Positions 2 to 55,733 of a stretch of 64,000 bases of DNA are shown piece after piece. The notes beneath the pieces were generated by a model, which had not been told where the DNA came from, searched no databases, and saw only the letters and a list, made by a program, of their open reading frames with translations. Within the stretch, counting starts at the first letter, position 1; every line of letters begins with the position of its first letter. The position numbers and the translations under genes were made by a program. The DNA comes from Candidatus Anderseniibacteriota bacterium. Its GTDB lineage: Bacteria > Patescibacteriota > JAUYIX01. The DNA is taken from positions 9,331-73,330 of the forward strand of contig JAXLZM010000005.1 of the NCBI GenBank assembly GCA_046350855.1, given 5' to 3'.

Positions 2-928
2 TTTGATCTGCCCCGGACCTCCGACGAAAAAGTCGAGGACATCATCCGCACCAACATCGTGGCGCTCAAGGCGCTGATCGGCATCATGATCGGCCGCCTC
101 ACCCCCGAGGAAGACGCCTTGCTCGATCGCGCCCTCTACGACACCTACGCCAAAAAAGACATCACTCCCAACACCCAGAGTTTAGTTGAGGTGGAATTTC
201 CACTCATGCAGGACTTGCAAGAAGTCTTGGCCTCGACCGAGGGGTCTGAGAGTCTTGCCACGCGTCTGGCCAAGTTTACCGAGGGTACCTTTGCGGGGTT
301 GTTCAACAAGCCGACTAATGTGCAGATCAAAAAGCAGCTCGTGACCTTTAACATCCGCGACTTGGAGGATGAACTCCGACCGATTGGTATGTTCCTGGTG
401 CTCAACTTTATGTGGAACACCGTCCGGGCTGAACTCAAAAAGCGCATCCTGGTAATTGATGAAGCCTGGTGGATGATGCAGTACGAGGACAGCGCGCGCT
501 TTTTGTTCTCGATCGCTAAGCGGGCACGTAAGTACTACTTGGGCGTGACGACTATCTCGCAAGACGTGGCCGACATGTTGGCCTCCGACTTTGGTCGCGC
601 GGTCGTGTCCAACTCCTCGATCCAGATGCTGTTGCGACAATCGCCCTCGACCATCGATCAAATTCAAGAAGTGTTCCACCTGACTGATGGCGAAAAATTC
701 TTGCTACTTGAGAGCGATGTTGGAGAGGGAATCTTTTTTGCTGGACTCAAGCACGTCGCCATCAAAGTGGTCGCCAGCTACAGCGAGGACCAGATCATCA
801 CCTCCGACCCCAAACAGATCCTCGAGATCGAAAAAGCGAAGCGTGACTTTGCTGCTGAGGAGGAGCAAGGGGGCGCGCAACAAGCAGAGCCACCGGTTGA
901 GCCAGCGGGCGGCCCAGGAGGTGCCTAG
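2..928 (+). CDS. VirB4/TrbE/CagE-family type IV secretion ATPase, C-terminal fragment (gene continues upstream of window)
   Basis: Reading frame is open from base 2 with no upstream stop. It contains ILVIDEAWWMM (the VirB4 DEAW Walker-B-region motif) followed by RKYYLGVTTISQ (RK..TQ motif) and a C-terminal fold pattern typical of VirB4. Confidence 0.75.
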   Translation, partial: FDLPRTSDEKVEDIIRTNIVALKALIGIMIGRLTPEEDALLDRALYDTYAKKDITPNTQSLVEVEFPLMQDLQEVLASTEGSESLATRLAKFTEGTFAGLFNKPTNVQIKKQLVTFNIRDLEDELRPIGMFLVLNFMWNTVRAELKKRILVIDEAWWMMQYEDSARFLFSIAKRARKYYLGVTTISQDVADMLASDFGRAVVSNSSIQMLLRQSPSTIDQIQEVFHLTDGEKFLLLESDVGEGIFFAGLKHVAIKVVASYSEDQIITSDPKQILEIEKAKRDFAAEEEQGGAQQAEPPVEPAGGPGGA

Positions 929-3009
929 TGCGCACGCGGGCGGTCGGAGTACCGGTTTTGTTAGCGATTTTGTTGAGCAGTTTGCTCACGCTCGGTTTGC
1001 CGTTGCGCTCCTCGGCCCAACTCGAAAAAGACAACGACAGCGATGCCTACGATCAAGAAACCTGTAACGGCGTCTCGGAGGACGAGATGGAGGCCACCAA
1101 AGATGGTGCGGTCGAAAATCCCTTTGGGCCGATCGATTTACCGGGCAGCTCCTCTCGTAACGGCGGTAACGATCCGGATGCCTTTAGTCCTTTTCCTAAT
1201 GGGAGCTTTCAGCTGCCCTTTGAATTAGACTTTGGTGGCCAACAGGGAGGTGGCGGCGGTGGAGGAGGGGGTGGCCAAGCTTTTTCGTTTGTTCCGACCT
1301 ACACCAGTGACGAGGATAAACGGGTCAACGCTTCCTTTTACCCAGAGCCACAAGTCTCGCTGCAATTGGCCGATCCGACCGCCGTCCAGGGCGAGGAGGT
1401 CACCGCGACCGTCCAATATGACAGTTTTGCCGATCAGAGTGTTCCGGGACAAAACTTTTACACGGTCGCCTTTGTGGACGGTGTGTTTCTTAACGGCCAC
1501 ATGGCGGGTGGTAGCGCAGAAGCCCTCCAAGAGCTCAGTGTCGGTGGCGGCGGAGCGCGCGGGGACTGCAGTACGGTGAGCCGCAAGACGCAGAGCGACT
1601 CCGATGGTGATGGGATGGACGACGATTGGGAGATTCGCTACGGCCTCAACCCCAACGACCCGGGGGATGCCGGACAAGATCCGGATAAGGATGGCTACCT
1701 AGCCAACAATTTTATTAATCTCGATGGCGAGGCGGTTCAGCCCGCACCTCCAATTGCCGGGGCAGAGCTCGGGGATGGCAGCTTTAGCAACTATGAGGAG
1801 TACGTCTTGGATACCGACCCGCGCAATCCGGATACGGATGGAGATGGCACGCCCGATGAGGCGGATGCGGTTGGTTTGGGTCAGAGCGTCATCAAGTTTC
1901 CGGCCACCAAAACGCTGGGAGAACCGGCCTACAACCTGCACGTCATCGTTGTGGGGCGCACCCAAAAGAAGAACGAGGACGGTGACACGTTGATCAAGAT
2001 TGATTCGGCCACGCGCCAAGTCCAGACCGGCACGCGCGAGAACCTCCAAGTGCAATTGCAGTTACTCTCGGCTGCCGCCCCTGGCCAGACTTTGGTCGTG
2101 ACCTCTGAGCCCACCGGCACCGATCAGCGTGATTTACTCAATACCTACCGCTGGTCGATCGCTGGGCAACTCAACACCCAATCCAGCGGCCAAGGTCGTC
2201 GGACCCTCGAGTACCCTATCGATCGGGGAGTAGCAGTCGGCACCAAACTCCCTATTACTCTCGAGCTGATTAACAGCAAGACTGGGCAACTTGCTAAGGG
2301 TGCTCTCGATGTAGTGGTCGGCGACACGGTCTTGCTCAACTACGATCCGCTTACGGTCGAACAAAACGGTACAGCTCAAATCCAAGCACTGCTAACCGCC
2401 GAGCAACCGCGCGACGATTTTTTGTTCAACTGGACGGTTAACGATCAGCTCGTGCCAACCGCCTCGCGAGTAGGCGCTGATACGTTTGATTTGCCCATAG
2501 CTGGTCGGGGTGGCCAAGAACAAACGGTCAGCGTGACGGTCTATCGCACCTCTGACAGTGCCTTGATCGGCCAGAGTATGACCACACTCACCGTGCTTGA
2601 ACCAAGCGTGCAACTGGTGCTTACACCCGAGCAGCCCCGTAGCGGCGATCACCCGGTCTTGGAGATCACGGCCCAACATTTTGGCTCTAATACGCTCCAG
2701 TACTCCGCAACCGTAGATGGCAAAAAGCTCGAGACGACCGGCCCCTTAGTCAGCTTGCCCGCGGTCACCCAAGGAGAACACCATTTGGCGGTGACCGTGC
2801 GTTCGACCGAGACACCCGCCAGCGTCGCTAACGCGGAGCTTGTCTTTAACGTCACCGGTGCAGTCGTGATTAGCGCCCGTTCACGTACACCCAACGTGCA
2901 AGCGAGCTTGGTCAGCACTCCAGTTTTGGGAGCTGCCTCAGCCATCGCAGTGGGAGTCATTATGCTGGTCTTGGTCTATAGCAACCGCACTAAAGCCCAT
3001 CCCGCATGA
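928..3009 (+). CDS. Tail-anchored secreted/surface protein with thrombospondin type-3-like Ca-binding repeats, paralog 1 of 3
   Basis: Has an N-terminal signal peptide, a CNGVSEDE motif, a Gly-rich tract, DSDGDGMDDDWEIRYGLNPNDPGDAGQDPDKDGY and DTDPRNPDTDGDGTPDE (DxDxDG-type repeats), and a C-terminal TM helix. Start overlaps the upstream stop; ATGA coupling to the next gene. Confidence 0.7.
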   Translation: MRTRAVGVPVLLAILLSSLLTLGLPLRSSAQLEKDNDSDAYDQETCNGVSEDEMEATKDGAVENPFGPIDLPGSSSRNGGNDPDAFSPFPNGSFQLPFELDFGGQQGGGGGGGGGGQAFSFVPTYTSDEDKRVNASFYPEPQVSLQLADPTAVQGEEVTATVQYDSFADQSVPGQNFYTVAFVDGVFLNGHMAGGSAEALQELSVGGGGARGDCSTVSRKTQSDSDGDGMDDDWEIRYGLNPNDPGDAGQDPDKDGYLANNFINLDGEAVQPAPPIAGAELGDGSFSNYEEYVLDTDPRNPDTDGDGTPDEADAVGLGQSVIKFPATKTLGEPAYNLHVIVVGRTQKKNEDGDTLIKIDSATRQVQTGTRENLQVQLQLLSAAAPGQTLVVTSEPTGTDQRDLLNTYRWSIAGQLNTQSSGQGRRTLEYPIDRGVAVGTKLPITLELINSKTGQLAKGALDVVVGDTVLLNYDPLTVEQNGTAQIQALLTAEQPRDDFLFNWTVNDQLVPTASRVGADTFDLPIAGRGGQEQTVSVTVYRTSDSALIGQSMTTLTVLEPSVQLVLTPEQPRSGDHPVLEITAQHFGSNTLQYSATVDGKKLETTGPLVSLPAVTQGEHHLAVTVRSTETPASVANAELVFNVTGAVVISARSRTPNVQASLVSTPVLGAASAIAVGVIMLVLVYSNRTKAHPA

Positions 3010-5036
3010 GTAAGCGTCTGACACAGTTTGCCGTCTTGCTGATCGTCCTCACCCTGGCGCTCGGAGTACCGCGTCTCTCGCGTGCGACCGACCAGGATGA
3101 TTTGAGCGACGCACACGGTCAGGGTCCCTATGATGAGGTCTCCTGTAACGGTGCCAGTGAGGATGAACTCGACACGGGGGACCCGGCCGAGGATTTCTTT
3201 CCGCCTTTTCAGTTTGATACCAATGAACAGCACAACGACGGAGGTGGTTCGTTTACGGGGCAATACACCTTTCCGTTTAGCGACCAAGAAGTCTTTCAGT
3301 TGTTCAATCGGCGCTCCGAGCAGGCCACCGAGCCGCACGTCAATGTCACGATCGCACCTACCGAGGTCGAACCCGGCCAACCCGTCAGTCTGATCGCAAG
3401 CCTGGCCGACTTTAAAGACAACGGCAGCGCGCAAAACCTACAGTACGCAGTGGGGTTCTCGGTCGATGAGATCAGTCTGCAGGGCATTATGGCCGGTGGT
3501 AAAAAATTGCCGGAGAGTCCGACCGGCTCAAGCTGTGGACTGGTGACCCGTACACCCCAGGTGGATGGCGATGGCGACGGCATGGATGACAACTGGGAGG
3601 CCGCACACGGCCTCAATCCGACCGACCCGAGTGATGCCTTTGCGGACCCTGACAACGACTCGGCTGCGCAGTTTTATACCAACGGGGATGACGAGGAGCT
3701 CCAGGTTACGCCCGAGACGGCCGGTGGCCCAACCGGCGTCATGAACAACCTGGCCGAATTTACCTTTGACACTGACCCTAATCGGGCCGATACGGATGGC
3801 GACAGCATTACCGACGGTATGGAGATTATCGGGTTTGGTGGGCCGGCCGTTACCTTTAGTATCGAGCGACCGGTTGGTTCTGCCGTACAGGTACGCGCCT
3901 TTGCGGTGGGGGTCTCGGCCAAGCAAGATGCCGAGCAAGAGTTTAAAAATATCGTCAAACTCGATTCTTCGACCCGCACCTTTTTTATCAGCAATGGGGA
4001 GCACCTCAAGGGCCAGACTAAGACCCTCGAAGCCTTTACCGCGCCGGGCCAGACCGCTGTGATCGAGGCCCAGTTTGTCGGTTCCGAGGCCGAGCCTGAC
4101 TCCTTTGCCTATAGCTACGAGGTAGACGGTCAAGAGATCACTAATCCATCGCCCGCGCGCCATCGTTTGGAGGTTGCGGTCGATCCGACTCGGACACCCG
4201 GCACGACCATTCCGTATCAGATCGAAGCGGTCAACCCGGCTACCGGACAACTCGCGACCATGCGGGGGGTGATCCAGGTAGGGGAGCACCTGACCCTTGA
4301 GACCGATCCGGTCGAACCCGTCGCAGGTGGGCCGGTCACGGTGCGGGCGGTGTTGGCCTCGGGCCAAGATCCATTGCACTACTTGTACGAGTGGTCGCTC
4401 AACGATCAATTGGATGAACAAGCCTCTGGTATTGGCCGTAACGCGATCGAATTGACCGCTCCGGCGGCAAGTGGTGACGCGGTCACGGTGAACCTACGTT
4501 TGTTTTTAGTCGACACCAGTCAGCTGGTGGGGCAGGCGGCGTTGGATCTAGCGGCCAGTACACCGAGCGTAGCGCTCGAGGTGATCCCCGAGTCTCCCAA
4601 GCCTGGCGAGACCGTCACGGTCTTTGCACGGCCTAAGAATTTTCCGGTCAACTTTGATAGTGACGGCAACGGTGACAACGATGCGACACTACTTCGCTAT
4701 AGCTGGAGTGTGGATGGGAGCGAGCAACCCGTGCAGGAGAGCGCGGCGGGGTTCTCGAGCATCACTCTACCGGCGGGTGACCTCAATCAACAGCACAGTC
4801 TGAGTGTCCAGGTGCGCTCTGTCGGGGCTCACAGTGAGACGGCCGGAGCCGAGGCGAGCTTTACGACCGGGGTGGGCGTGACCGCTATCTCCGCACGGGC
4901 CCGAGCTGCGGGAGAAACTCTCTTGGCCTCGCTGGGTTCGGCCTTTCCACGCTACGGTGCGGCGGTGATTGCAGCCCTTGGTGTTGTCTCGCTACTCGGT
5001 TTGGCCTACTGGGGTCGCACACGGAGGACCGCATGA
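3006..5036 (+). CDS. Tail-anchored secreted/surface protein with TSP3-like repeats, paralog 2 of 3
   Basis: Has a signal peptide and the shared motifs CNGASEDELD, FFPPFQFD, VDGDGDGMDDNWEAAHGLNPTDPSDA and DTDPNRADTDGDSITDG, plus a C-terminal TM helix and basic tail. ATGA overlaps at both ends. Confidence 0.7.
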   Translation: MSKRLTQFAVLLIVLTLALGVPRLSRATDQDDLSDAHGQGPYDEVSCNGASEDELDTGDPAEDFFPPFQFDTNEQHNDGGGSFTGQYTFPFSDQEVFQLFNRRSEQATEPHVNVTIAPTEVEPGQPVSLIASLADFKDNGSAQNLQYAVGFSVDEISLQGIMAGGKKLPESPTGSSCGLVTRTPQVDGDGDGMDDNWEAAHGLNPTDPSDAFADPDNDSAAQFYTNGDDEELQVTPETAGGPTGVMNNLAEFTFDTDPNRADTDGDSITDGMEIIGFGGPAVTFSIERPVGSAVQVRAFAVGVSAKQDAEQEFKNIVKLDSSTRTFFISNGEHLKGQTKTLEAFTAPGQTAVIEAQFVGSEAEPDSFAYSYEVDGQEITNPSPARHRLEVAVDPTRTPGTTIPYQIEAVNPATGQLATMRGVIQVGEHLTLETDPVEPVAGGPVTVRAVLASGQDPLHYLYEWSLNDQLDEQASGIGRNAIELTAPAASGDAVTVNLRLFLVDTSQLVGQAALDLAASTPSVALEVIPESPKPGETVTVFARPKNFPVNFDSDGNGDNDATLLRYSWSVDGSEQPVQESAAGFSSITLPAGDLNQQHSLSVQVRSVGAHSETAGAEASFTTGVGVTAISARARAAGETLLASLGSAFPRYGAAVIAALGVVSLLGLAYWGRTRRTA

Positions 5037-7078
5037 GACGGTTTGTGTTGAGTTTGCTCGTCGTGCTCGTTGCAGGATTTTCTACCCTTGGTGGCCTGCT
5101 CCCGCTCCTGGTGCCACAAAAAGCCCAGGCCGTGCAAGCCCCAGAAAACGACGATATTTTTGATGTGGAGGCGTACAACGGAGCTCGCGAGGACGAGTTG
5201 ACTACCCGCCCCTTGGGCGAGTTCTTTCCGCCTTTTGATTTTAACTTTAGCTACAACTTTGACGTGGATGTCTCGGGAGGGGGCTTGTTTGGAGGCGGCG
5301 CCAACGCTGACGTCAACACTGATTTGCAATCCATTTTGCAGCCGCTCTTTACACCGCAAGAACAGTTCCAAAAACAGAGCAGCCGCTTTGAACCACCCCG
5401 GGCCAACATCACCCTCTCCACGGCCGGGATCCAGCCCGGAACGCAGCTCTCCGCTACCGCGCAGCCGCAATCGTTTAAGCAACAGGGCAGCGGCGAGGAC
5501 TTATTTTACGCCTGGGCTTTGGATACCGTCTCGCTCTCGGGGGTCGCGGCCGGGGCTGATCCGCTCGATCTCCCGCAAGCGTCCTCGCCGCGGGCCACGC
5601 ACTCTCGTGCAACTAAAACGGACAGCGATGGCGACGGAATGGACGACGATTGGGAGGTTCGCTATGGACTCAATCCCAATGATCCAAGTGATGCGGGGCA
5701 AGATCCCGATAGCGACGGCTACACTAACGACGTCTATAAAAACGAGAGCGGCGAGGTTTTGATTGTCGAACCCGCCACCTCGGCAGGACCGGCAGGCGGA
5801 CCCCTCACCAACCTCAAGGAGTACATTTGGGGCACCGATCCCCGTAATCCCGACACCGATGGCGATGGCTTTAGCGACGGCCAGGACATTGCCGGCTTGG
5901 GCCAGACTCAGATTTCGTTGACGGTTCCACCGGATGCCTCGGTTAACGATGCGCCAGTTTTGCGACTCACGATCTTGGGTCACTCACTCCAGGCCTTTGA
6001 ACAAGACAAGCCGCTCGTCAAACTCGACTCCAACACGGTTACGCTGACCGTGCGCGATGCCGAAAAACTTGATGTGCGCCTCGAGGCCAACAACGACGCG
6101 CCCGTGCCAGGGCAGGACGTCACACTCACGGCCACGCTTGGTCGTACGGATTTTCAGCCGGGGATTTTGTCCTACACCTGGTTTGTTAACAACGTGCCGC
6201 AGCAGGACGCCTCGGGGGAGAGTAAGTTCACCTATACCTACACTGTGCCAGAGACGGCTCAGCCGGGTGACGTAGTGTTGTTTAGTGTCACGGCGGTTAA
6301 CTTTGAGACCCGCCAGCAAGCCGAGGCGGAGCTCGAGATCCGTGTGGGAGAACTCGTGCAGCTCCAGTACGATCCGCAAAAAGTGGAGAGCGGTAAGGAT
6401 CTGACCGTGACCGCCACGATGGTCAATAACGCCGACCCAACCGATCTGGTGTTTCACTGGTCATTGGATGACCATGAACTCGACGATCAATCCGGTCAGG
6501 GTAAAACCTCGTTGACCGTGCCCATCCCCAAAGGTACGGGAGAAAAACACACCGTGGGCGTGCGCGTCACAACCCCCGAGGACTCAGCCGCTTTTGCCGA
6601 TAGCCAGACGACCTTGGAGGTGGCCCAACCCGCCATCAGCCTGGTCGTGGATCCGACCGCGGTCGCGCTGGGTGGTACCGTCACGGCCGTGGCCGTGCCG
6701 GAGCACTTTGCCTCGAGCGATTTACAGTTTTCTTGGACCATCGACAGCCAGCCCCAGCAGACCCAACCGAGCGAGAGTTCAATCGTGATTACAGCCAGTG
6801 ACTCCGGGACCCATACCGTTGGGGTACGGGTCCAGTCGGTGGGGCAGGGGGCCGAGAGTGCCACGGCCAGCGCTAGTTTTACCGTGGCGACTACCGCAGA
6901 GACGGCCTTGTCGGCCCCGGCCGGGTCTGGTGGTACTACTGCACCAGCTACCACGGTCGCCTCGGTGCGCCAGGCTTTTTTTGGTCGTCCGCTCAGCCTG
7001 GGGATCTTTTTTGGAGCGTTCTTTGTAGTGCTTGGTATAGTTACTGCGTTACTCATTCGCCGCAATGCGCTTTCTTAG
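5033..7078 (+). CDS. Tail-anchored secreted/surface protein with TSP3-like repeats, paralog 3 of 3
   Basis: Has a signal peptide, YNGAREDELT, FFPPFDFN, KTDSDGDGMDDDWEVRYGLNPNDPSDAGQDPDSDGY and GTDPRNPDTDGDGFSDGQD, plus a C-terminal TM helix (GIFFGAFFVVLGIVTALLIRRNALS). Confidence 0.7.
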   Translation: MRRFVLSLLVVLVAGFSTLGGLLPLLVPQKAQAVQAPENDDIFDVEAYNGAREDELTTRPLGEFFPPFDFNFSYNFDVDVSGGGLFGGGANADVNTDLQSILQPLFTPQEQFQKQSSRFEPPRANITLSTAGIQPGTQLSATAQPQSFKQQGSGEDLFYAWALDTVSLSGVAAGADPLDLPQASSPRATHSRATKTDSDGDGMDDDWEVRYGLNPNDPSDAGQDPDSDGYTNDVYKNESGEVLIVEPATSAGPAGGPLTNLKEYIWGTDPRNPDTDGDGFSDGQDIAGLGQTQISLTVPPDASVNDAPVLRLTILGHSLQAFEQDKPLVKLDSNTVTLTVRDAEKLDVRLEANNDAPVPGQDVTLTATLGRTDFQPGILSYTWFVNNVPQQDASGESKFTYTYTVPETAQPGDVVLFSVTAVNFETRQQAEAELEIRVGELVQLQYDPQKVESGKDLTVTATMVNNADPTDLVFHWSLDDHELDDQSGQGKTSLTVPIPKGTGEKHTVGVRVTTPEDSAAFADSQTTLEVAQPAISLVVDPTAVALGGTVTAVAVPEHFASSDLQFSWTIDSQPQQTQPSESSIVITASDSGTHTVGVRVQSVGQGAESATASASFTVATTAETALSAPAGSGGTTAPATTVASVRQAFFGRPLSLGIFFGAFFVVLGIVTALLIRRNALS

Positions 7079-7481
7079 ACTTTCCACTATTAGTACAAGC
7101 GTCAGCCTGAGCGTAGGCCTGTTCTTGGGTGCGACTCCCTTGGTGACGCACGCCCAGCAGCAAACCGATGCTTTTTGCATCAATCAAGCTTTTTATGCGC
7201 GCATCAGCCAGTACTACAACCTGGCGGTAGCCTTTGCGATTTTGGCGGCCATTTTTATGATCGTCTATGGCGGCTATCGCTTGGTCGTCTCGATCGGTCG
7301 CCCCGGTCTCATCGAGCAGGGCAAAAAGATGATCCAAAATGCCCTCATTGGTCTAATCATTGCGATCGTCTCGGCCGTGATCTTAAACATCCTCAACCCG
7401 CGCATTCTCAACCAAAATGGTGAACAGTGCGGCGCCGCCCCCAGTGCACTACATATTCAGACGGAGGTACTCTCAGCATGA
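7065..7481 (+). CDS. Small pilin-like protein (VirB2/TrbC-like topology: signal peptide plus two hydrophobic helices)
   Basis: 138 aa. Signal peptide ends THA/QQ. The mature part has helix LAVAFAILAAIFMIVYGGY, a basic loop IGRPGLIEQGKKMIQ, and a second helix ALIGLIIAIVSAVILNIL. It lies directly after the VirB4-like/surface-protein cluster. Confidence 0.5.
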   Translation: MRFLRLSTISTSVSLSVGLFLGATPLVTHAQQQTDAFCINQAFYARISQYYNLAVAFAILAAIFMIVYGGYRLVVSIGRPGLIEQGKKMIQNALIGLIIAIVSAVILNILNPRILNQNGEQCGAAPSALHIQTEVLSA

Positions 7482-8785
7482 GACGCTCGTATTTTTTCTT
7501 GATCGTAATCGTGGGAGGTATTCTGGCCGTCTTGACCACGCTCTTTTTTGTCTTTGACAACCCCTATCGCCGTCTCAACCCTGAGCCAACTCCCGTCGTT
7601 ACGGCCCCAACCCTGGACGATCAGCTGCCACCCAGTGCGGGCGAGGCCACCGACACCGAGTTGATCACCGTCCTGGAGCTACCGACCATTGGGTTGACCA
7701 CAGGGGTGGATGGACTGCGCTTAGTATTTTACGACAAGGACTCCAGCAAGATCGAAGTGACCGAGTTTGACGGCACCGGCCTACAAGAACTCTCCGACAC
7801 ATTGCTCGGGGTCGAGGCCATGGAGTTGTCTCCCGCCAAAGACAAGGCCTGGATGCGCTTGACCGACCCAGAGACCAAAGACCTAATCACACTGGTCTAT
7901 GACTTTAGGGCTAAAGAGGCGGTTCGGCTAGAGAATGGGATCAAGGCGATTGACTGGTCACCGGACGGGAGTGAACTGCTCTACTACGTCGACCGCAGCG
8001 GTAGCGCCCCGGCCCTCAAGCGCGTCAAAGCTAACGGCGTCGAGCCGCGTACCGTGCGCCAGGGCTTTACCGTACAAAACCCGGTCTTGGCCTGGTATGC
8101 CGAGGATCAGCTGGCCTATTGGCTGAGTCCCTCCTCGACCCGTCCGTCCTCCATCATCACGATGAACCTCTCTGGTAACAATGCCGTCGAGTTGGCCGCC
8201 ACGGCCCCTGCCGCCCAAGCTCTTTTTTCACCCGACGGCACCTACGCTCTGCTCGCCCAAAACAACCCCACCACCGGTAAGCCGCAACTTGCTCTCAGCA
8301 CGACCGCCGACCGTACCACTAGTGCCTTGCCGTTGACCACCTGGCTCGATAAGTGCACCTGGATGAACGACAGCGCCCGCATCCTCTGTTTTGTCCCGCG
8401 CGATCTGCCCGGAAACTTTGTCTACCCTGAGAGTGACACTGGAGCCAACGCCTACCGTGACCAGCTCTGGGTTATCGATGCCGCTACCGCCAAACCACAA
8501 TTGATTTACGACGTGCCGGGCTCGATCACGGACGCGACCAAGCCCTTTGCCTCCACCAACGGTAGCCGGCTGAACTTTATCTCCCGTGCCAGTGGCACGG
8601 TTGTCAGTCTGGAACTCGCCGATAAATTAGTGGCGCCCACCACGCCCAACGCTTCCACCAACCTGATCACTCCCGCCGGTGCCACGACCGCTCCCGGTAC
8701 GAGCTCGAGCTCAGGCGGGAGCGGTTCTGGTACGGGCAGTCTGCCAACCGGCAGTAGCACCAGTGGCTCAGGCACGACTTATTAA
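7478..8785 (+). CDS. Membrane-anchored WD40-like (PD40/TolB-type) beta-propeller protein with Ser/Gly/Thr-rich C-terminal tail
   Basis: ATGA overlap with the upstream gene. Has an N-terminal TM anchor and repeated DWSPDGSELLYY / FSPDGTYALLAQ PD40-like motifs. Start chosen at MRRSYFF (7478) rather than the 7427 ORF start. Confidence 0.6.
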   Translation: MRRSYFFLIVIVGGILAVLTTLFFVFDNPYRRLNPEPTPVVTAPTLDDQLPPSAGEATDTELITVLELPTIGLTTGVDGLRLVFYDKDSSKIEVTEFDGTGLQELSDTLLGVEAMELSPAKDKAWMRLTDPETKDLITLVYDFRAKEAVRLENGIKAIDWSPDGSELLYYVDRSGSAPALKRVKANGVEPRTVRQGFTVQNPVLAWYAEDQLAYWLSPSSTRPSSIITMNLSGNNAVELAATAPAAQALFSPDGTYALLAQNNPTTGKPQLALSTTADRTTSALPLTTWLDKCTWMNDSARILCFVPRDLPGNFVYPESDTGANAYRDQLWVIDAATAKPQLIYDVPGSITDATKPFASTNGSRLNFISRASGTVVSLELADKLVAPTTPNASTNLITPAGATTAPGTSSSSGGSGSGTGSLPTGSSTSGSGTTY

Positions 8786-8802: not shown

Positions 8803-8828
8803 GGGCCACAGGATGAATCCTGTGGCCC
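8803..8828. terminator. Hairpin between convergent genes (bidirectional terminator candidate)
   Basis: Hairpin gggccacagg-atgaat-cctgtggccc. A T-rich run follows on the minus-strand reading, and an A/T-rich tract precedes it on plus. Confidence 0.5.
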
Positions 8829-10086: not shown

Positions 10087-12177
10087 TTACTCGAGGTGCA
10101 ACTGCGTGGCAACGCGACCGACTCGCTGTTTGAGGAGCGGCCACTGACGTAGGCTCGGATCGGCCTGGAGTACGGCCACGGCGGCCTCTTTGGCCTGGGC
10201 TAAAATTCGTGAATCGAGGACCGTCGCAAACTTAAAACTGACCTGACCATGTTGGCGAGTACCAAACGGTTCACCCGGACCGCGTAGCTCGAGATCCGCC
10301 TCAGCTAGGCGAAACCCATCGTTGGTGGTGCAGAGGAGTTGCAGACGCTTGCGGGTCTCGGGGGTGGCGGCATCCGGTACCAGCAAACAGAGCGAGGCTT
10401 TACTGCCGCGGCCGACCCGACCGCGGATCTGGTGCAGCTGAGCCAGTCCAAAACGGTCCGCACTCAGGACAACCATCAGTGTGGCGTTAGGGATGTCGAT
10501 CCCGACCTCGATCACGGGGGTGGTAGCGAGCACCTGGTAACGGCCGGCCCTAAAGTCTCCGATCACTTGGTTTTTTTCTTGGTCGCTCATGCGACCGTGC
10601 AACAAGCCAACCCTGATTGGTTGAGGGGCGCTGCCGAGCTGTTTTTGTAATTCTGCGTACTCTGCTAAGACTGCCCGGGCTTGTAACTTGTCACTCGCCT
10701 CGATGAGCGGGAACATCACAAAAACCTGTTGGCCGCCCGCCACGGTTTTTTTAATCGTCTTGAGTAAGGTTGTGTGCGCTTTTTTTGGAACAATTTTGGT
10801 GGTGATTGGGGCGCGTCGCTTAGGTTTTTGATCGAGGACCGAGAGATCCAGATCACCGTAGAGGGTGAGAGCCAGGGAGCGGGGGATCGGTGTAGCGGTC
10901 ATGGAGAGCAAGTGTGGTAAATGATTGGGTAAACGCACTTTGGTCTTAAGGAGCTGCCGCTGTTTGACCCCAAAACGGTGCTGCTCATCTACAACGACGA
11001 GGTGTAATTGTTTAAAGGTAACGCGCGGCTGCAAAATGGCGTGCGTGCCGACCACCACCGAGAGCGTGCCAGCCGCGAGTTGTTTTTTGAGGGCTACGGT
11101 CTCGGCTGAACTACTCACCAGGAGCGCCACCGTGATGCCAAACGGTTTGAGGAGCGTCGTCAGGGTCGTGTAATGCTGCTCGGCCAAGATCACGGTTGGT
11201 GCTAAAACCGCCGCTTGACCACCACTGCGTGCCACCGCCAGTAAGGCCATAGCCGCGACTACGGTTTTCCCCGAGCCAACGTCGCCCTCAAGCAGGCGGT
11301 TCATGGGGTGAGGCTTGGCGAGGTCTTGCACGATTTGCCAGGCTGCTTTGCGCTGCGCGTCGGTCAGTGTATAGGGGAGCTTGGCGACAAACTCTTGTAG
11401 GAGCTCCGGTACGACCGGAGTAGGGCGCGCCTGCACCTGGATCAGGGAGGCCCGCTCGCGTAAGACAAAGAGAGAGAGCAAAAACAGCTCTTCAAAAGTC
11501 ATACGCAGGCGCGCCCGGTCCAAGGCCTCTGGGTTCGACCCCGGAAAATGCAATTGTGTGAGCGCCAGGCTACGGTCGAGCAGGTCGTACCGCTTGCGTA
11601 CACTCGGCGGTACCACATCGGGGGTGTGCTGGACCGTTTGCAAGGCCTGCTTGATCCAGTACCGCATTTGCTTAGTCGTGATCCGCCCGGTCAGGGGATA
11701 GATCGGCTGCAGCGCCCCCTTACCAAGGGCGATGGCCGGATCACGCACCACCTCCGGGCTCTCCAACGTCAGTCGACCCTTGTAGCGACTAATCTTGCCA
11801 CGTAAAAAAGCGATCTTGCCCGCGAGTGCCTCCACCAGGTACGGCTGGTTGAACCAGGTTACCGCGAGACTACCTGTCTCATCATTGAGCAACCCCTCTT
11901 GGATGGTTAGTCGTCGCCTAAAACTGCGTCGATTGGTAATCGAGACTACTTGCGCACAAATGAGAACCGGCTGTCCGTTAGCCCCGGTCGGTATACCGAT
12001 CGACCCAATCGAAACCGGTCGACCGTAGTGCTCGTGGCGGCGGGGGAGATGTTCGGCCAACTCTTGTACGGTCCGGATACCCAAGGTTTGTAACTCACGC
12101 ACCGCGGCGGGTCCCACACCGTGCAGACGTGAGACTGGGTCGCTGGGTACTACACGCTGAGTCAGGGTTACGGACAT
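10087..12177 (-). CDS. recG: ATP-dependent DNA helicase RecG
   Basis: GDVGSGKT Walker A, DEQHRFGV Walker B, wedge/OB N-domain and C-terminal RecG helicase motifs. Start trimmed to MSVTLTQ (12177) so it does not overlap the tRNA. Confidence 0.9.
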   Translation of the reverse strand: MSVTLTQRVVPSDPVSRLHGVGPAAVRELQTLGIRTVQELAEHLPRRHEHYGRPVSIGSIGIPTGANGQPVLICAQVVSITNRRSFRRRLTIQEGLLNDETGSLAVTWFNQPYLVEALAGKIAFLRGKISRYKGRLTLESPEVVRDPAIALGKGALQPIYPLTGRITTKQMRYWIKQALQTVQHTPDVVPPSVRKRYDLLDRSLALTQLHFPGSNPEALDRARLRMTFEELFLLSLFVLRERASLIQVQARPTPVVPELLQEFVAKLPYTLTDAQRKAAWQIVQDLAKPHPMNRLLEGDVGSGKTVVAAMALLAVARSGGQAAVLAPTVILAEQHYTTLTTLLKPFGITVALLVSSSAETVALKKQLAAGTLSVVVGTHAILQPRVTFKQLHLVVVDEQHRFGVKQRQLLKTKVRLPNHLPHLLSMTATPIPRSLALTLYGDLDLSVLDQKPKRRAPITTKIVPKKAHTTLLKTIKKTVAGGQQVFVMFPLIEASDKLQARAVLAEYAELQKQLGSAPQPIRVGLLHGRMSDQEKNQVIGDFRAGRYQVLATTPVIEVGIDIPNATLMVVLSADRFGLAQLHQIRGRVGRGSKASLCLLVPDAATPETRKRLQLLCTTNDGFRLAEADLELRGPGEPFGTRQHGQVSFKFATVLDSRILAQAKEAAVAVLQADPSLRQWPLLKQRVGRVATQLHLE

Positions 12178-12213
12178 AGGCAACAGTGTACACCGCACTA
12201 CTTGGTGCGGCAC

Positions 12214-12290
12214 TGGTGTGCCCGGGAGGATTCGAACCTCCGACCCCCAGCTCCGCAAGCTGATGCTCTAATCCACTGAGCTACGGGCAC
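12214..12290 (-). tRNA. tRNA-Arg (anticodon GCG read from loop TTGCGGA)
   Basis: Cloverleaf GTGCCCGTAGCTCAGTGGATTAGAGCATCAGCTTGCGGAGCTGGGGGTCGGAGGTTCGAATCCTCCCGGGCACACCA on the minus strand, with encoded CCA. Confidence 0.8.
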
Positions 12291-48122: not shown

Positions 48123-49391
48123 ATGACGACCAGTACAGTCTCAACTAAGACCATAAAGCAGCCGACCGTCATTAAGCGGGACGGTTCGGCCGTGCCTTTT
48201 AACAAGGAACGTATCGCAAATGCTATCGCTAAAGCGGGTGCTGCAACCGGAGAAATTGGCAGGGCTGAAGCTTCAAAACTAGCCGAACGTATCACACATT
48301 TTATCGTTCGCTCGTACTCTGCGGGTCAACATAAAATAAAACCGGTGCAGGCCAGGGTTACGGTCGAACAGATTCAGGACATCGTCGAGTTCGCCCTAGC
48401 CAACGCCGGGCACTTTAAGACCGCACGGGCCTACATCGTCTACCGCGAAAAACGTGCCCAAGCCCGCTCGGTCGGAGGCGTCGCCGTCGAGGTAGAAAAA
48501 ACCATTGGCGAGTACGTTGATAAGCAAGACTGGCGCGTCAATGCCAACGCCAACCAAGGCTATTCACTAGGCGGCCTGATCCTCAACGTCTCTGGCAAAC
48601 TTATCGCCAATTACTGGCTGAACTTTGTCTACACCAAAGCCATTCGTGATGCACATGTCGACGGAGATATGCATATTCATGATCTGGATATGTTCTCGGG
48701 CTACTGCGCCGGCTGGAGCTTACGACAACTGCTAGAAGAAGGTTTTAACGGGGTCCCGGGTAAATGTGAGTCCGCTCCGCCTAAACACCTCGAGACGGCC
48801 GTCGGACAAATGGTTAATTTTTTGGGCACCCTCCAAAACGAGTGGGCTGGGGCACAAGCTTTTTCGTCCTTTGATACGTATTTAGCCCCATTTGTAAAAA
48901 TAGACAAGCTCGATTTTGAGCGGGTTAAACAGTGTGTCCAGCAGTTTGTCTTTAACCTCAATGTGCCCTCACGCTGGGGCACCCAAACGCCCTTTACCAA
49001 CATCACCCTCGACTGGACCGTGCCCGAGGATTTAGCATCCAAGCATCCGGTTATCGCCGGCGTCACACAAAAATTTACCTATGCCGATTGCCAAGCCGAG
49101 ATGGATTTGCTCAATCGTGCTTTTATCGAGGTCATGACCGAGGGCGACTCCAAGGGTCGGATTTTTACCTTTCCGATTCCGACCTATAATCTCACCAAGG
49201 ATTTTGATTGGGAGAGTGACAACGCCAAAGTACTGTTTGAAATGACGGCTAAGTTTGGCATCCCGTACTTTCAAAACTTTATCAACTCCTCGCTCAAACC
49301 TCAGATGTGCGTAGCATGTGCCGCCGACTGCAACTCGATTTGCGAGAACTCCGCAGTCGGGGCGGGGGACTGTTTGGTTCGGCCGAAATGA
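48123..49391 (+). CDS. nrdD: Anaerobic ribonucleoside-triphosphate reductase NrdD, N-terminal ORF segment (gene interrupted by frameshift)
   Basis: ATP-cone and class III RNR core. Conserved sequence runs to ...FINSSLKPQMC, then the frame is lost. Confidence 0.8.
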   Translation: MTTSTVSTKTIKQPTVIKRDGSAVPFNKERIANAIAKAGAATGEIGRAEASKLAERITHFIVRSYSAGQHKIKPVQARVTVEQIQDIVEFALANAGHFKTARAYIVYREKRAQARSVGGVAVEVEKTIGEYVDKQDWRVNANANQGYSLGGLILNVSGKLIANYWLNFVYTKAIRDAHVDGDMHIHDLDMFSGYCAGWSLRQLLEEGFNGVPGKCESAPPKHLETAVGQMVNFLGTLQNEWAGAQAFSSFDTYLAPFVKIDKLDFERVKQCVQQFVFNLNVPSRWGTQTPFTNITLDWTVPEDLASKHPVIAGVTQKFTYADCQAEMDLLNRAFIEVMTEGDSKGRIFTFPIPTYNLTKDFDWESDNAKVLFEMTAKFGIPYFQNFINSSLKPQMCVACAADCNSICENSAVGAGDCLVRPK

Positions 49392-50275
49392 CCGGCAGTA
49401 TCGGGGTGGTTACGCTCAACTTAGCGCGCATCGGGTACTTAGCTAAGAGCAAGGAGGACTTTTTTGCTCGAGTGGGACGACTGATGGATCTGGCCAAAGA
49501 CTCGCTCGAACTCAAACGCAAAGTGGTGGCCGAGAACATCGAGCGGGGCCTCTTGCCCTTTACCAAACGCTACTTACCGAGTCTGCACAACCACTTTGCC
49601 ACCATCGGGATCAACGGTGCCAATGAGGCCTGCCTCAACTTTTTGGGTAAAAACCTTGCAGACCCTGAGTCGACAGCACTCATCACCGAGCTCCTCGGCT
49701 ACATGCGCACGCGACTCGCGGATTACCAAGAAAAAACCGGTAACCTGTACAACTTAGAAGCCACGCCGGCCGAGGGCACAACCTATCGCTTTGCCAAAGA
49801 GGATCAAAAGCGTTTTCCGGGGATCGTGCAGGCGGGTACCGATATGGCGCCCTACTACACCAATTCAACACATCTCCCGGTCGACTTTACCGACGATCCA
49901 CTCGGCGCACTCGATCATCAGGATCCACTCCAGACTAAGTACACGGGCGGTACGGTTCTCCATCTCTTTTTGGGTGAACGTGTTCACGATTGGCAAACCT
50001 GCCGCGCTTTTGTGCGCAAGGTGGCCGAACATTACAAACTGCCCTACTTTACGATCACGCCTACCTTTAGCATTTGTCCGACGCATGGTTACTTGTCCGG
50101 CGAACAGTCGCACTGTTCGATCTGTAATGCAACCTGTGAGATCTGGTCACGGATTGTGGGCTACTTTAGACCGGTCGAACAATGGAATAAAGGCAAAAAA
50201 AGTGAGTATGTGGATCGCCTCGAGTACTCCGCTCAAAAAGCGACCGCGCAAAAAACGACAGAGGTTGCTCGATGA
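49307..50275 (+). CDS. nrdD: NrdD C-terminal ORF segment (continues the conserved sequence in another frame)
   Basis: MCRRLQLDLRELRSRGGGLFG...SIGVVTLNLARIG, then a zinc ribbon C...CxxC and the glycyl-radical motif RIVGYF. Confidence 0.8.
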   Translation: MRSMCRRLQLDLRELRSRGGGLFGSAEMTGSIGVVTLNLARIGYLAKSKEDFFARVGRLMDLAKDSLELKRKVVAENIERGLLPFTKRYLPSLHNHFATIGINGANEACLNFLGKNLADPESTALITELLGYMRTRLADYQEKTGNLYNLEATPAEGTTYRFAKEDQKRFPGIVQAGTDMAPYYTNSTHLPVDFTDDPLGALDHQDPLQTKYTGGTVLHLFLGERVHDWQTCRAFVRKVAEHYKLPYFTITPTFSICPTHGYLSGEQSHCSICNATCEIWSRIVGYFRPVEQWNKGKKSEYVDRLEYSAQKATAQKTTEVAR

Positions 50276-53226: not shown

Positions 53227-54918
53227 ATGAAATTAAGCTACAACTGGCTCCAAGAATTTGTCCCGCTTGACGTAACGCCCCAAAAATTGGCGGATTTATT
53301 GACCATGAAGGCCGCCGAAGTTGAGGGCGTCGAGATTTTGGGGCAAGACATTACTAAGGTCATCGTCGGTGAGATCCTCGAGATCCGGCCACACCCCAAG
53401 GCTGACAAATTGCAGCTCACCAAGGTCTCGATCGGCAAAGATATCTTAGAGATCGTGTGTGGGGCCAAGAATATTCGGGTCGGGCAAAAGGTGCCGACCG
53501 CCATCAATGGCGCGACATTACCGGGTGGCGTACAGATTGTGGCTAAGGAGTTACGCGGAGCTAAGTCGGAGGGCATGTTGTGTTCGGCCGATGAGTTGGG
53601 CTTGCCAGGCGTTGGCCCTGACGGAATCTTGATCCTCGATCCACAGTCGCCGGTGGGGGAGGACGTGCGTAAGGTCTTGGGGCTCGAGGAGGCCATACTT
53701 GACATCAAAGTCTTGCCGGACCGCTCGTACTTGCTCTCGCATGTGGGTGCGGCGCGCGACATTTCTGCGATGCGGGCAAAGACCCTCATGCTCGACAGCT
53801 ACGGCAAGACCGGGGCCGAGGCGATTACACATAGCCAAATTCCCAACGGCGGTTCGGTCAAGATTTTGGATCAGGTGCACTGCCCCCGCTACTCGATGAT
53901 TATGCTCTCCAACTTGCGTATCACCGCGAGTCCAGCCTGGCTCTCGACGCGGCTCAAACAGCTGGGTGTCAGACCGGTCAATAACCTGGTCGACCTCACC
54001 AATTACGTTATGCTCGAGCTGGGTCAGCCCCTGCATGCTTTTGACTCGGCTAAATTGCAGGGTCGTAAGGTAACGGTGCGGCGTGCTAAGGCGGATGAAC
54101 AGCTCACCACTCTAGACGGCGTCGCGCGTAAACTTGATCCGGAGGCCTTGGTCATTGCGGATGGCTCAAAACCAATCGCGCTCGCCGGAATCATGGGCGG
54201 TAAAGAGTCTGAGATCGGTAATCTGACCTCAGGTGCGTTGATCGAGTCCGCCAACTTTGAACCAAAAGGGATTCGCGCTACGGCCCAGCGGCTCAAACTG
54301 CGCACCGACGCCAGCATGCGCTATGAGCGGGGAGTGGACCCTAACTTGACCGCCGTCGCACTCGCTCGTCTGGTCGAGCTACTCCCGCGTGCTGGTCTGA
54401 TAGAGGCGCAATCAAGTCAAATCATCGACGACTACCCGGCCCCGCTCGTGCGCCAACCCGTGCGCTATAAACCGACCGAAGTCATGCGTCTGACCGGCAT
54501 CGATGTACCCCTCTCCGAGCAAATTCGCTTGCTGCAAGGTCTGGGGATGGCCATTGATGATCGCAACTTTGCCATTGAGCACGAGTTGTTCATCACGCCG
54601 CCCTCATTTAGACAAGATGTCACGACCAGCGCGGACATCGTAGAAGAAATCGTGCGTCTCTGGGGCTACGAGCGCATCCCGCTCACCCTCCCCTCCGCCA
54701 AGCTCCTCCCACAACCCTATGACGTCGATCGCCACTGGTCGCGCCGCGCCAAAAATATTTTGCGTGGGGCCCGCTTTAGCGAGGTTGAGACCTATAGTTT
54801 TGTCAGCAAGCAGCTACTCCAAACACTCCATTTTGATCCGCGCGAGCACATCGCCCTCGCTAACCCATGTCACCTGAGCAAGCCTACTTGCGCTCGAGTT
54901 TGGTCCCAAACCTCCTGA
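53227..54918 (+). CDS. pheT: Phenylalanine--tRNA ligase beta subunit, N-terminal ORF segment (frameshifted gene)
   Basis: tRNA-binding domain, B3/4 and B5 domains. The frame is lost after ...ALANP. Confidence 0.85.
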   Translation: MKLSYNWLQEFVPLDVTPQKLADLLTMKAAEVEGVEILGQDITKVIVGEILEIRPHPKADKLQLTKVSIGKDILEIVCGAKNIRVGQKVPTAINGATLPGGVQIVAKELRGAKSEGMLCSADELGLPGVGPDGILILDPQSPVGEDVRKVLGLEEAILDIKVLPDRSYLLSHVGAARDISAMRAKTLMLDSYGKTGAEAITHSQIPNGGSVKILDQVHCPRYSMIMLSNLRITASPAWLSTRLKQLGVRPVNNLVDLTNYVMLELGQPLHAFDSAKLQGRKVTVRRAKADEQLTTLDGVARKLDPEALVIADGSKPIALAGIMGGKESEIGNLTSGALIESANFEPKGIRATAQRLKLRTDASMRYERGVDPNLTAVALARLVELLPRAGLIEAQSSQIIDDYPAPLVRQPVRYKPTEVMRLTGIDVPLSEQIRLLQGLGMAIDDRNFAIEHELFITPPSFRQDVTTSADIVEEIVRLWGYERIPLTLPSAKLLPQPYDVDRHWSRRAKNILRGARFSEVETYSFVSKQLLQTLHFDPREHIALANPCHLSKPTCARVWSQTS

Positions 54919-54955: not shown

Positions 54956-55660
54956 ATGTCCATCTACGAGCTCGGCCGGACCTTTAGCTATATCCGTAAT
55001 AAGCCCTACCCGCACGAGCCACTCATGTTGACCCTCGCCACCGTCTCGGCTGAGCCCCGCCCCGCCAAAGCGCGCCTCCAATCCGCTGCCACTCCGGCAG
55101 AACGTACGCAGCTCGCCGTAGTACTTGAGGATCTTCTGTTCCACTTTGGGCTCGATCCCAAAGTACTCGTGCGCAAACCCTTTACGGCCAATCCGGCTGA
55201 TTTTCATCCTGGCCGCACCGCGCTTCTCGAAATCAAGGGCGAGGACATCGGCTATTTGGCGGAGGTGCATCCGGCGGTGCTGTCTGCGCTCGATATCAAT
55301 AGGACCGTAGCAATCCTCGATCTTGAGTTTGCTAAACTAATTACGCTGGCCAAGGACGAACGCACCTTTAATGAGATCCCAAAGTATCCAGCCGTCCGTC
55401 GCGATCTGTCGCTCGTGGCCTCGCTTGAGCTCCCCGCGGCCGATCTGATCGAGACCATCACGACCGCAGGCGGGGAGTTACTCACCGATGTTGAGTTGTT
55501 CGACCGCTACCAAGGCGGCAAAGTCGGTGCGGGCAAAAAGAGCTACGCTTTCCATCTGACTTTTCGCTCGGACAAGCAGAGCCTGACCGACTCCGAGGTT
55601 GAACCACTCCTCAAAAAAATCTCGAGCGCGCTATCAAATAAGTCCGTTTTGGTTCGTTAG
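54956..55660 (+). CDS. pheT: PheT C-terminal ORF segment (FDX-ACB domain)
   Basis: The conserved motif continues as SIYELGRTF... in the third frame. C-terminal ...VELFDRYQG...SYAFHLTFRS. Confidence 0.85.
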   Translation: MSIYELGRTFSYIRNKPYPHEPLMLTLATVSAEPRPAKARLQSAATPAERTQLAVVLEDLLFHFGLDPKVLVRKPFTANPADFHPGRTALLEIKGEDIGYLAEVHPAVLSALDINRTVAILDLEFAKLITLAKDERTFNEIPKYPAVRRDLSLVASLELPAADLIETITTAGGELLTDVELFDRYQGGKVGAGKKSYAFHLTFRSDKQSLTDSEVEPLLKKISSALSNKSVLVR

Positions 55661-55698
55661 TTTCGAATCCATCCTGTGGATTAGTCTACACGTTCTCT

Positions 55699-55733
55699 GC
55701 TTGCATAAGGGGGGGGGTCTATATACTAGTTAT
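55699..55733 (+). promoter_or_regulatory. Putative promoter with a G9 homopolymer in the -35/-10 spacer; leaderless start
   Basis: TTGCAT, then a 15-nt spacer containing GGGGGGGGG, then TATACT, then 6 nt, then ATG at 55734. Confidence 0.35.

Follow-up and report, generated by a model that had tools for sequence, protein, structure and literature searches.

Patescibacteria carry a type IV secretion system (T4SS) whose relatives are monoderm (MPF-FATA) conjugation systems; its pilins are VirB2-like, a relaxase is usually missing, and its genes often lie close to KsgA and the origin (Quinonero-Coronel et al. 2025, PMC12102498). In that study, no adhesins such as PrgB were detected and VirB8/9/10 homologs were generally not found; in the Saccharimonadia model available in culture, peptidase and lysozyme homologs are reported to be encoded immediately downstream of virB4. 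By transposon sequencing, a Saccharibacterium was shown to require the T4SS cluster and its pilins for epibiotic growth (Wang et al. 2023, PMC10633639), a finding repeated in a 2025 review (PMC12857230). Here we describe three consecutive genes, A, B, and C (together, the trio), in such a cluster of a Candidatus Anderseniibacteriota bacterium (assembly GCA_046350855.1, contig JAXLZM010000005.1, positions 9,331 to 73,330 of the forward strand). This 64,000-nucleotide stretch, analyzed at its full length, is referred to as the window. An earlier note, made from the letters of the window alone, had described a tandem triplication of a large, tail-anchored, Asp-rich surface protein and had proposed either antigenic or host-range variation or a heteromeric fiber as its function.

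The trio lies between a virB4-type gene and a pilin gene, in the following arrangement.

59..928, + strand, 3' part of a virB4-type T4SS ATPase gene, cut by the window start (Pfam P-loop_TraG, E 2.8e-15)
928..3009, + strand, paralog A, open reading frame (ORF) of 693 amino acids (NCBI MFO0705062.1, "hypothetical protein")
3006..5036, + strand, paralog B, ORF of 676 amino acids (NCBI MFO0705063.1, "hypothetical protein")
5033..7078, + strand, paralog C, ORF of 681 amino acids (NCBI MFO0705064.1, "Ig-like domain-containing protein")
7065..7481, + strand, VirB2-like T4SS pilin gene, 138 amino acids (Pfam T4SS_pilin PF18895, E 7.3e-07, 29.6 bits, cutoff 26.6)
7478..8785, + strand, PD40/TolB-like beta-propeller protein of 435 amino acids with an N-terminal transmembrane (TM) segment, final operon gene (weak PD40 and TolB matches; MFO0705066.1)
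8803..8828, no strand assigned, 11-bp GC-rich palindromic hairpin between the operon end and a convergent minus-strand ORF (terminator-like scan)

The three co-directional ORFs are present with the sizes given in the earlier note, as are the ATGA stop/start overlaps at 3006-3009 (A/B) and 5033-5036 (B/C). Upstream, the virB4 stop codon TAG (926-928) overlaps the GTG start of A (928) by one base, with AGGAGG six bases before this junction (sequence 916-930). Downstream, the pilin start at 7065 overlaps the end of C by 14 nt, and a further ATGA at 7478 joins the propeller start to the pilin stop, so that the operon gene junctions are overlaps of 1-14 nt. Because the overlaps continue on both sides and the hairpin, likely a bidirectional terminator, follows the last gene, A, B, and C form the middle of a tightly packed operon. 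The C-terminal part of VirB4 in the window is 94% and 87% identical to the full-length VirB4 proteins of two related contigs, L001 and L002, respectively. When the 64-kb window was scanned with a hidden Markov model (HMM) of the family, exactly three copies were found, namely, A, B, and C.

A, B, and C are full-length paralogs. They align end to end with three-way MAFFT identities of 33-36%, and pairwise, composition-adjusted BLASTP gave E values of 1e-75 (A/B), 4e-68 (A/C), and 3e-74 (B/C) at 31-33% identity. These E values, obtained after composition correction, show that chance cannot account for the similarity, which extends past the Asp-rich stretch; the three-way alignment holds over the whole length, including the parts outside low complexity on which the earlier note had staked its proposal. 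Alignment and context together confirm the tandem triplication of a large surface protein beside VirB4 with shared conserved islands. Two islands required correction: CNG..EDE is present in all three proteins with its Cys changed to Tyr in C (YNGAREDEL), and FFPPF is exact in B and C while A has FSPFP. The N-terminal motif of A (residues 31-56) reads D.DAYDQETCNGVSEDEM. B carries a clade-specific HG(Q/L)GP insert in this motif and an extra DSDGNGDND insert in its last beta-sandwich domain. C is Cys-free, having lost both the motif Cys and its partner before the Asp repeats.

The description of the proteins as Asp rich applies to one region more than to the whole: Asp accounts for 7.5-8.2% of residues (Asp plus Glu, 13-14%) and is concentrated in thrombospondin type 3 (TSP3)-type repeats.

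1591..1878, + strand, TSP3-type Asp-rich repeat region of A, putatively Ca2+ binding, identified by motif
3558-3836, + strand, TSP3-type repeat region of B, equivalent to the A region
5621-5899, + strand, TSP3-type repeat region of C, equivalent to the A region

The repeat motifs are DSDGDGMDDDWE..YGLNPNDP.DA.QDPD.DG, followed by N.EEY...TDP...DTDGDG..D. The consensus DxDxDGMDDxWE...NP...D is invariant in A, B, C, and their relatives, and some orthologs have a precomputed match to Pfam TSP3_bac (PF18884). Against this family, whose curated cutoff is 25, A scored 18.1 bits and C scored 20.7 bits, and no match was listed for B. Weak local matches to MtsD/CglD over the repeat region were found in NCBIfam, far below the family cutoffs. 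Overall, sequence searches of Pfam, NCBIfam, and the PDB with A, B, and C returned only sub-threshold TSP3, PKD, and Ig matches and no T4SS family. The trio resembles TSP3 surface proteins such as Myxococcus MtsD and CglD in its D-x-D-x-D-G-M-D-D-x-W-E...N-P...D motif, and protein searches with the trio returned thousands of repeat-only TSP3 proteins. This likeness is limited to approximately 90 residues; neither the remainder of the protein nor its T4SS setting is related. The Asp-rich loops may bind Ca2+, as judged from their sequence.

The N-terminal motif appears to be linked to the repeat region. In A, the pertinent cysteines are Cys46 (1063-1065) and Cys214 (1567-1569), and in B they are Cys47 (3144-3146) and Cys177 (3534-3536). 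Among 40 family sequences, the tip-motif Cys and the Cys before the first repeat were both present in 32, both missing in 8, and never found singly; the 8 comprised seven Andersen-type clade C proteins and one 311-amino-acid fragment that lacks both regions. Because the two cysteines co-occur perfectly, a disulfide probably ties the tip motif to the repeat region in A and B and in most family members.

All three proteins have a signal-peptide-like N terminus, in which a positive n-region precedes a hydrophobic core and the residues at -3/-1, ahead of Q, T, or V, are small. Each also has a single strongly hydrophobic C-terminal segment (mean 19-residue Kyte-Doolittle hydropathy, 1.95-2.65), after which comes a short K/R tail without acidic residues. 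The TM segments and tails are residues 666-684 and SNRTKAHPA in A, residues 651-669 and GRTRRTA in B, and residues 657-675, with GxxxG (GIFFG), and RRNALS in C. Hydropathy analysis gave the same result, one C-terminal TM segment (Kyte-Doolittle, 1.5-2.9) and a K/R tail, for all 21 trio proteins of the seven complete loci (three each from the window, L001, L002, L004, L084, L086, and L088). The single C-terminal helix with a short basic tail is thus found in every copy. The term "tail-anchored" does not apply in its strict sense, since an N-terminal signal-like region with an AxA-type site is also present. Because a signal-like N terminus is combined with a positive tail after the C-terminal TM segment, the trio proteins are predicted to be type I membrane proteins whose bulk is extracytoplasmic. 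No LPxTG or loose sortase-like motif was found next to the C-terminal helix in the 21 trio proteins; a lone loose match, LPSAA in the position 2 protein of L086, lies approximately 30 residues upstream of the helix.

An AlphaFold2 model of A, based on a 15-sequence family alignment (mean predicted local distance difference test [pLDDT] score, 69), contains five beta-sandwich domains and the repeat region, with a pLDDT score of approximately 90 at residues 222-250 and a TM helix at residues 666-688. The resulting layout is a signal peptide (approximately residues 1-30), the N-terminal motif (31-56), a low-confidence Gly-rich linker (57-136), an Ig-like domain D1 (137-221), TSP3-type repeats (222-317), and beta-sandwich domains D2 to D5 (318-646); B and C have the same architecture. 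Neither a coiled coil nor a beta-solenoid, both of which the earlier note had suggested looking for, was seen in the model, and both were rejected because the secondary structure is that of beta-sandwich domains. At the level of fold, the domains resemble Ig-like/FN3/PKD surface proteins, including an Aureispira GhpA grappling-hook fragment, phage Hoc, an archaeal S-layer protein, and complement/A2M macroglobulin domains, at 6-17% identity. This resemblance is generic and carries no functional information.

Approximately 10-15 residues before the TM segment, all 21 trio proteins share a juxtamembrane motif, [GL]-[LA]-A-x-[VL]...(I/V)P..(F/Y)(R/K). In the window, it lies at the following approximate sites.

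2896-2922, + strand, juxtamembrane motif of A
4911-4955, + strand, juxtamembrane motif of B
6950-7000, + strand, juxtamembrane motif of C

The motif, which is found in both lineages described below and is not of the LPXTG type, may be a docking or sorting signal. Many trio TM helices also contain small-xxx-small patterns, for example, GIFFG in C; these are compatible with helix packing against partners and are only suggestive.

Only 14 full-length homologs emerged from a first profile search, and every one came from an Andersenbacteria-like or Parcubacteria metagenome-assembled genome; other proteins matched the TSP3 repeat alone. The full operon is visible on two JGI contigs, L001 (868 kb) and L002 (1.03 Mb), in the order TSP3 protein, unknown, VirB6-like, unknown, PrgI/VirB3, TraC-like, VirB4, trio, pilin, and propeller, with KsgA upstream and RecG downstream, as in the window. 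The TrbL/VirB6-like match in the loci of relatives is weak. The family resolves into three ortholog clades, A, B, and C (bootstrap, 100/100 each), and the same clade occupies the same position in each genome. Identity within clades is 43-75% (A, 43-60%; B, 51-75%; C, 49-74%) and identity between clades is approximately 30%; paralogs of one genome are no more alike than paralogs of different genomes. At the nucleotide level, paralogs are 44-47% identical, and the longest stretch that they have in common, 18 nt, falls within the invariant repeat motif. On these values gene conversion among paralogs was rejected, and a check for conversion tracts, as suggested in the earlier note, found none. These comparisons indicate that the triplication is old and that the order A-B-C has been kept in related genomes.

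Conservation is distributed unevenly along the proteins. The N-terminal Cys/acidic module, which had been singled out from the window alone, is the best-conserved part within ortholog clades (68-80% identity; 36% between paralogs). The TSP3 region has the highest identity between paralogs (52%; 66-76% within clades), and the "disordered" linker is 52-65% identical within clades (22% between paralogs). The corresponding values are 37-51% and 30-32% for the membrane-proximal domains D4 and D5 and 21-47% and 17-22% for the juxtamembrane segment and the TM segment plus tail. Between genomes, the trio proteins are 49-75% identical, like the pilin and the propeller; they diverge faster than RecG, and VirB4 is 87-94% identical.

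This pattern bears on two alternative explanations. The first, that the trio is a cassette of alternative surface variants for antigenic or host-range variation, is suggested by the presence of tandem, diverged paralogs of an exposed protein, and tandem divergent VirB2 pilin arrays in Patescibacteria have been read in this way (PMC12102498). Such arrays, found in Patescibacteria, Bartonella, and Anaplasma, are likewise diverged tandem paralogs of an exposed T4SS-linked protein, but they comprise 2 to 11 copies, whereas the trio is fixed at three ordered copies with conserved tips. The orthologs are ancient and conserved in order, no conversion tracts were found, the copy number is three in all seven complete loci, divergence rates are like those of neighboring structural genes, and the exposed distal parts are the most conserved; variation predicts the opposite of such a conserved tip on a variable stalk. 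Variation, one of the two functions originally proposed, is therefore largely refuted, and we give it very little credence. The second explanation is that the trio forms an envelope-spanning collar or channel for the VirB2-like pilus, standing in for the VirB7/9/10 core, which monoderm-type systems lack, and having no ligand-binding role. In every locus, the trio is flanked by virB4 and the pilin gene, its proteins combine a membrane anchor with a long ectodomain that looks rigid in the AlphaFold2 model, the juxtamembrane motif is conserved and the Gly/Ala-rich TM helices are suited to packing, and VirB8/9/10 homologs are generally not found in such systems (PMC12102498). We nevertheless consider a collar improbable: conservation is lowest in the membrane-proximal domains and TM segments, Ig arrays of the beads-on-a-string type are not known to form channels, and the lectin-like tips of the relatives described next are hard to explain for a pure conduit.

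The wider family was sought by an exhaustive HMM search of 1.84 billion cluster representatives, which found further members of 640-700 amino acids and a second group of approximately 950-1,040 amino acids with an extra N-terminal region of approximately 300 residues. Loci of this long group (L004, L084 [on a 1.14-Mb contig], L086, and L088) have the order PrgI, TraC-like, VirB4, small ORF, three large family genes, one to three pilin genes, and PD40 propeller. Their three-gene blocks, encoding proteins of approximately 950-1,020 amino acids, are located as follows.

L004, 6187-14328, long-group three-gene block
L084, 7073-15830, long-group three-gene block
L086, 10001-18749, long-group three-gene block
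L088, 5844-14870, long-group three-gene block

All 12 large proteins of these blocks match the Andersen-type family HMM (E, 1e-48 to 1e-67). Exactly three tandem family genes thus lie between virB4 and the pilin gene in 7/7 complete loci, and all of them match the family HMM with an E value of 1e-48 or better. An eighth locus, L005, a 5.4-kb contig cut at both ends, contains three consecutive family ORFs. L004 and L005 were found by a contig scan for the TSP3 motif; 78 of the 80 loci among the matches listed were unrelated TSP3 proteins. Proteins P0015-P0120 and most representative-search matches were likewise rejected as repeat-only proteins outside the family; P0017, for example, is a pure TSP3-repeat protein in an unrelated context.

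Within the long group, proteins cluster by position, with bootstrap values of 93 for position 1, 100 for position 2, and 65 for position 3 (100 without L004). A first neighbor-joining tree, in which the L004 paralogs grouped together, reflected sparse sampling; with three more loci, position-specific clades were recovered. The Andersen-type and long groups are each monophyletic (100/100), and pairing of A/B/C with positions 1/2/3 was recovered in 0/100 replicates. Dayhoff recoding gave the same tree result, and locus GC contents overlap between the two groups (0.44-0.59); after both comparisons, a composition artefact behind the split is unlikely. A third lineage, P0126, P0129, and P0134, maps onto C, B, and A, respectively, by clade-specific HMM scores, and P0129 has B-type indels, in agreement with its assignment to B. 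The simplest readings of these trees are two separate triplications or one triplication followed by homogenization (concerted evolution) in each stem lineage. Under either reading, the number three is kept.

Several further features were noted in these relatives. In the long-form loci, T4SS_pilin genes occur in two or three copies of 193-530 amino acids, compared with the single 138-amino-acid pilin of the window, and a small ORF (128-193 amino acids, no Pfam match) separates virB4 from the trio; this ORF is absent from the window, L001, and L002, where virB4 directly abuts gene A. In addition, the T4SS operon of relatives opens with a gene for another TSP3-repeat protein, which has an N-terminal TM segment. 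This protein was rejected as a trio relative, as it shares the repeat only (hhalign over 30 columns); in the window, the upstream part of the T4SS operon lies before the window start.

L084 15827-17810, multiplied pilin genes
L086 18746-21631, multiplied pilin genes
L088 14880-19207, multiplied pilin genes
L004 5756-6142, small ORF between virB4 and trio
L084 6635-7057, small ORF between virB4 and trio
L086 9423-10004, small ORF between virB4 and trio
L088 5323-5796, small ORF between virB4 and trio
L001 1632-2618, upstream TSP3 protein gene
L002 1346-2338, upstream TSP3 protein gene
L086 789-1925, upstream TSP3 protein gene

The N-terminal extensions of positions 1, 2, and 3 in the long group are homologous to one another, and Pfam and PDB sequence searches with them gave no match. 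The extension is predicted to fold as a ConA-like lectin jelly roll, a domain missing from the 727-amino-acid position 3 protein of L004. Its structural likenesses include carbohydrate-binding domain 4 of AbnA, the Hc domains of tetanus and botulinum toxins (the Hc N-domain in clostridial neurotoxins), the lectin domain of Vibrio cholerae sialidase, legume lectins, ERGIC-53, and LamG, with no sequence-level matches; the window proteins are without this domain. Many such ConA-like domains are carbohydrate- or receptor-binding modules.

These tips raise the possibility that the trio represents three independent membrane-anchored adhesins, each with its own ligand, which play a part like that of PrgA/PrgB/PrgC and form no A:B:C complex. 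A distal binding module on an Ig-like stalk is a typical adhesin design, the Myxococcus adhesion proteins MtsD and CglD (weak local matches) contain TSP3 repeats, and Gram-positive T4SSs depend on surface adhesins (PMC12102498). The trio resembles these T4SS adhesins, PrgA/PrgB/PrgC of pCF10 and TraO of pIP501, which are thought to mediate cell contact, in consisting of large Sec-exported surface proteins in a monoderm-type T4SS cluster. In contrast to them, the trio lacks LPXTG, has a C-terminal TM anchor and Ig-like plus TSP3 domains, and consists of three paralogs in fixed order; no homology to known T4SS adhesin domains was found in Pfam, NCBIfam, or PDB sequence searches. If the adhesins were independent, their number and order should differ between lineages, whereas three in fixed order were found in 7/7 complete loci across a very deep divergence. 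Conservation of the tip motif and repeats between paralogs (52%, compared with approximately 25% elsewhere) points to a shared partner and not to different ligands, and the tight translational coupling suggests stoichiometric production. On balance, we regard independent adhesins as unlikely, although less so than a collar.

The trio genes are consistently found among T4SS genes. The earlier note had suggested a search for homologs adjacent to VirB4 in other genomes, and virB4 was found next to the trio in the same orientation in L001, L002, L004, L084, L086, and L088, as in the window. A pilin gene occupies the corresponding position in the same six contigs, and the propeller gene downstream of the pilin genes is kept in related loci, although it is unconfirmed in L086, whose contig is cut in the gene after the pilins. 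PrgI and TraC-like genes are present in the full loci of relatives, and the pilin match in the window is above the cutoff. The trio therefore lies inside a cluster of the kind described for Patescibacteria (PMC12102498, PMC10633639), with PrgI/VirB3, TraC-like/TrsD, VirB4, VirB6-like, and T4SS_pilin components, KsgA nearby, and no relaxase seen; the published inventories consulted, in contrast, list no component matching the trio proteins. A last alternative is that the trio proteins are surface-layer-type proteins unrelated to the T4SS that merely share its operon. Their Sec signal peptides imply export independent of the T4SS, and Foldseek matches include an archaeal S-layer protein of Ig-like domains. 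Against this, the same operon position is held across lineages in which trio identity is only approximately 25%, and overlapping reading frames tie the trio to virB4 and the pilin gene. Mere operon sharing is thereby largely excluded, and we think it highly improbable.

The second function offered in the earlier note, a heteromeric fiber, fits the data and is the better of the two. We favor, with about even confidence, a reading in which A, B, and C are the three subunits of a mixed stalk or adhesin that spans the envelope as part of the Patescibacteria T4SS and, with the pilus, contacts the host cell. Each protein would be exported by Sec and remain in the cytoplasmic membrane through its C-terminal helix, leaving the basic tail on the inner side. 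From the membrane outward, the ectodomain of approximately 620 residues would consist of four beta-sandwich domains, the TSP3 repeats, one Ig-like domain, and the acidic N-terminal tip, which in A and B would be linked back to the repeat region by a disulfide. Because the stops and starts overlap, cotranslation from one operon would favor equal amounts of the three products, which could then assemble side by side into a mixed A:B:C stalk that passes through the wall and surface layer beside the pilus. This stalk would be stiffened by calcium in the TSP3 repeats and, in most members, by the disulfide, and it would help the machine to hold onto, or be positioned at, the host cell surface. In the long relatives, host contact may be made through the ConA-like lectin domain at the tip.

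Several points weigh against this reading of the trio as a heteromeric stalk. Binding of A, B, and C to one another and of the trio to the T4SS and the host-contact role are hypothetical, and the Sec signals make trio export independent of the T4SS, so that the trio could be a separate surface structure sharing the operon. The ConA-like domain that supports adhesion in relatives is absent from A, B, and C of the window; the approximately 110 residues after the signal peptide in the model of A (residues 23-136) are of low confidence; and the TSP3 scores are below the cutoff. The sample is small, with eight loci examined in all. Finally, the trio is not universal in Patescibacteria T4SS loci, since the genes downstream of virB4 in Saccharimonadia differ (PMC12102498). 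A bolder version of the stalk, which we advance tentatively and consider rather less probable, holds that the trio forms an obligate A:B:C, pseudo-threefold, calcium-stiffened stalk that spans the envelope beside the pilus, docks the epibiont on its host, and defines an unrecognized core structural class of the Patescibacteria T4SS-like machine, three subunits having arisen twice or been held by concerted evolution. Three subunits arising twice, or being held in two deep lineages, would point to a strict three-subunit geometry.

The rest of the window is ordinary chromosome, encoding RecG, a ClpB/C-type ATPase, LigA, a UvrD/AddA-type helicase-nuclease, GyrB, a GatA-type amidase, PheT, NrdD, and six tRNAs. 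Two of these genes are broken. nrdD is split into two overlapping ORFs in different frames (48123-50275, + strand), which could reflect a frameshift, an assembly indel, or a genuinely split gene. pheT, encoding the Phe-tRNA synthetase beta chain, appears as two ORFs, with its tRNA_synthFbeta domain interrupted between profile positions 67 and 98. Because two essential genes are broken in one window, assembly errors are suggested. A protein with cell-wall-binding repeats and the protein that follows it are possible wall or surface-layer proteins of a monoderm cell. A tRNA-Arg gene overlaps the 5' end of the longest RecG ORF, which has a TTG start at 12258; the real RecG start must therefore lie further downstream.

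48123-49391, + strand, nrdD part 1, ATP-cone and NRDD profile positions 2-262
49307-50275, + strand, nrdD part 2, NRDD profile positions 260-562
53227-54918, + strand, pheT, first ORF
54956-55660, + strand, pheT, second ORF
55599-56882, + strand, protein with three CWB2 cell-wall-binding repeats, profile match
56902-58293, + strand, protein with a weak BNR-like match, following the CWB2 protein
12214-12290, - strand, tRNA-Arg (GCG)
10087-12258, - strand, longest RecG ORF

The trio family is apparently undescribed. The text of PMC12102498 makes no mention of TSP3, Ig-like proteins, or Andersenbacteria-specific components, and "Andersenbacteria" appears only as a class in its genome list; a literature search covering Andersenbacteria/Patescibacteria T4SS, Ig-like, thrombospondin, and cryo-electron tomography, incomplete in its coverage, found no description of the trio. 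While the domain types of this putative T4SS accessory surface module are common, its conserved three-paralog organization is unusual. The family HMM and operon signature could serve for subtyping Patescibacteria T4SSs. Few machines have been shown to be indispensable to the epibiotic life of Patescibacteria, and the T4SS-like system is one of them. Published inventories report no adhesin and no envelope-spanning component, and the trio, which has lectin tips in some lineages, is a concrete candidate for this missing part. That its copies always number three in the complete loci, a state apparently arrived at or preserved independently in two lineages, offers a testable hint about how the machine is built.

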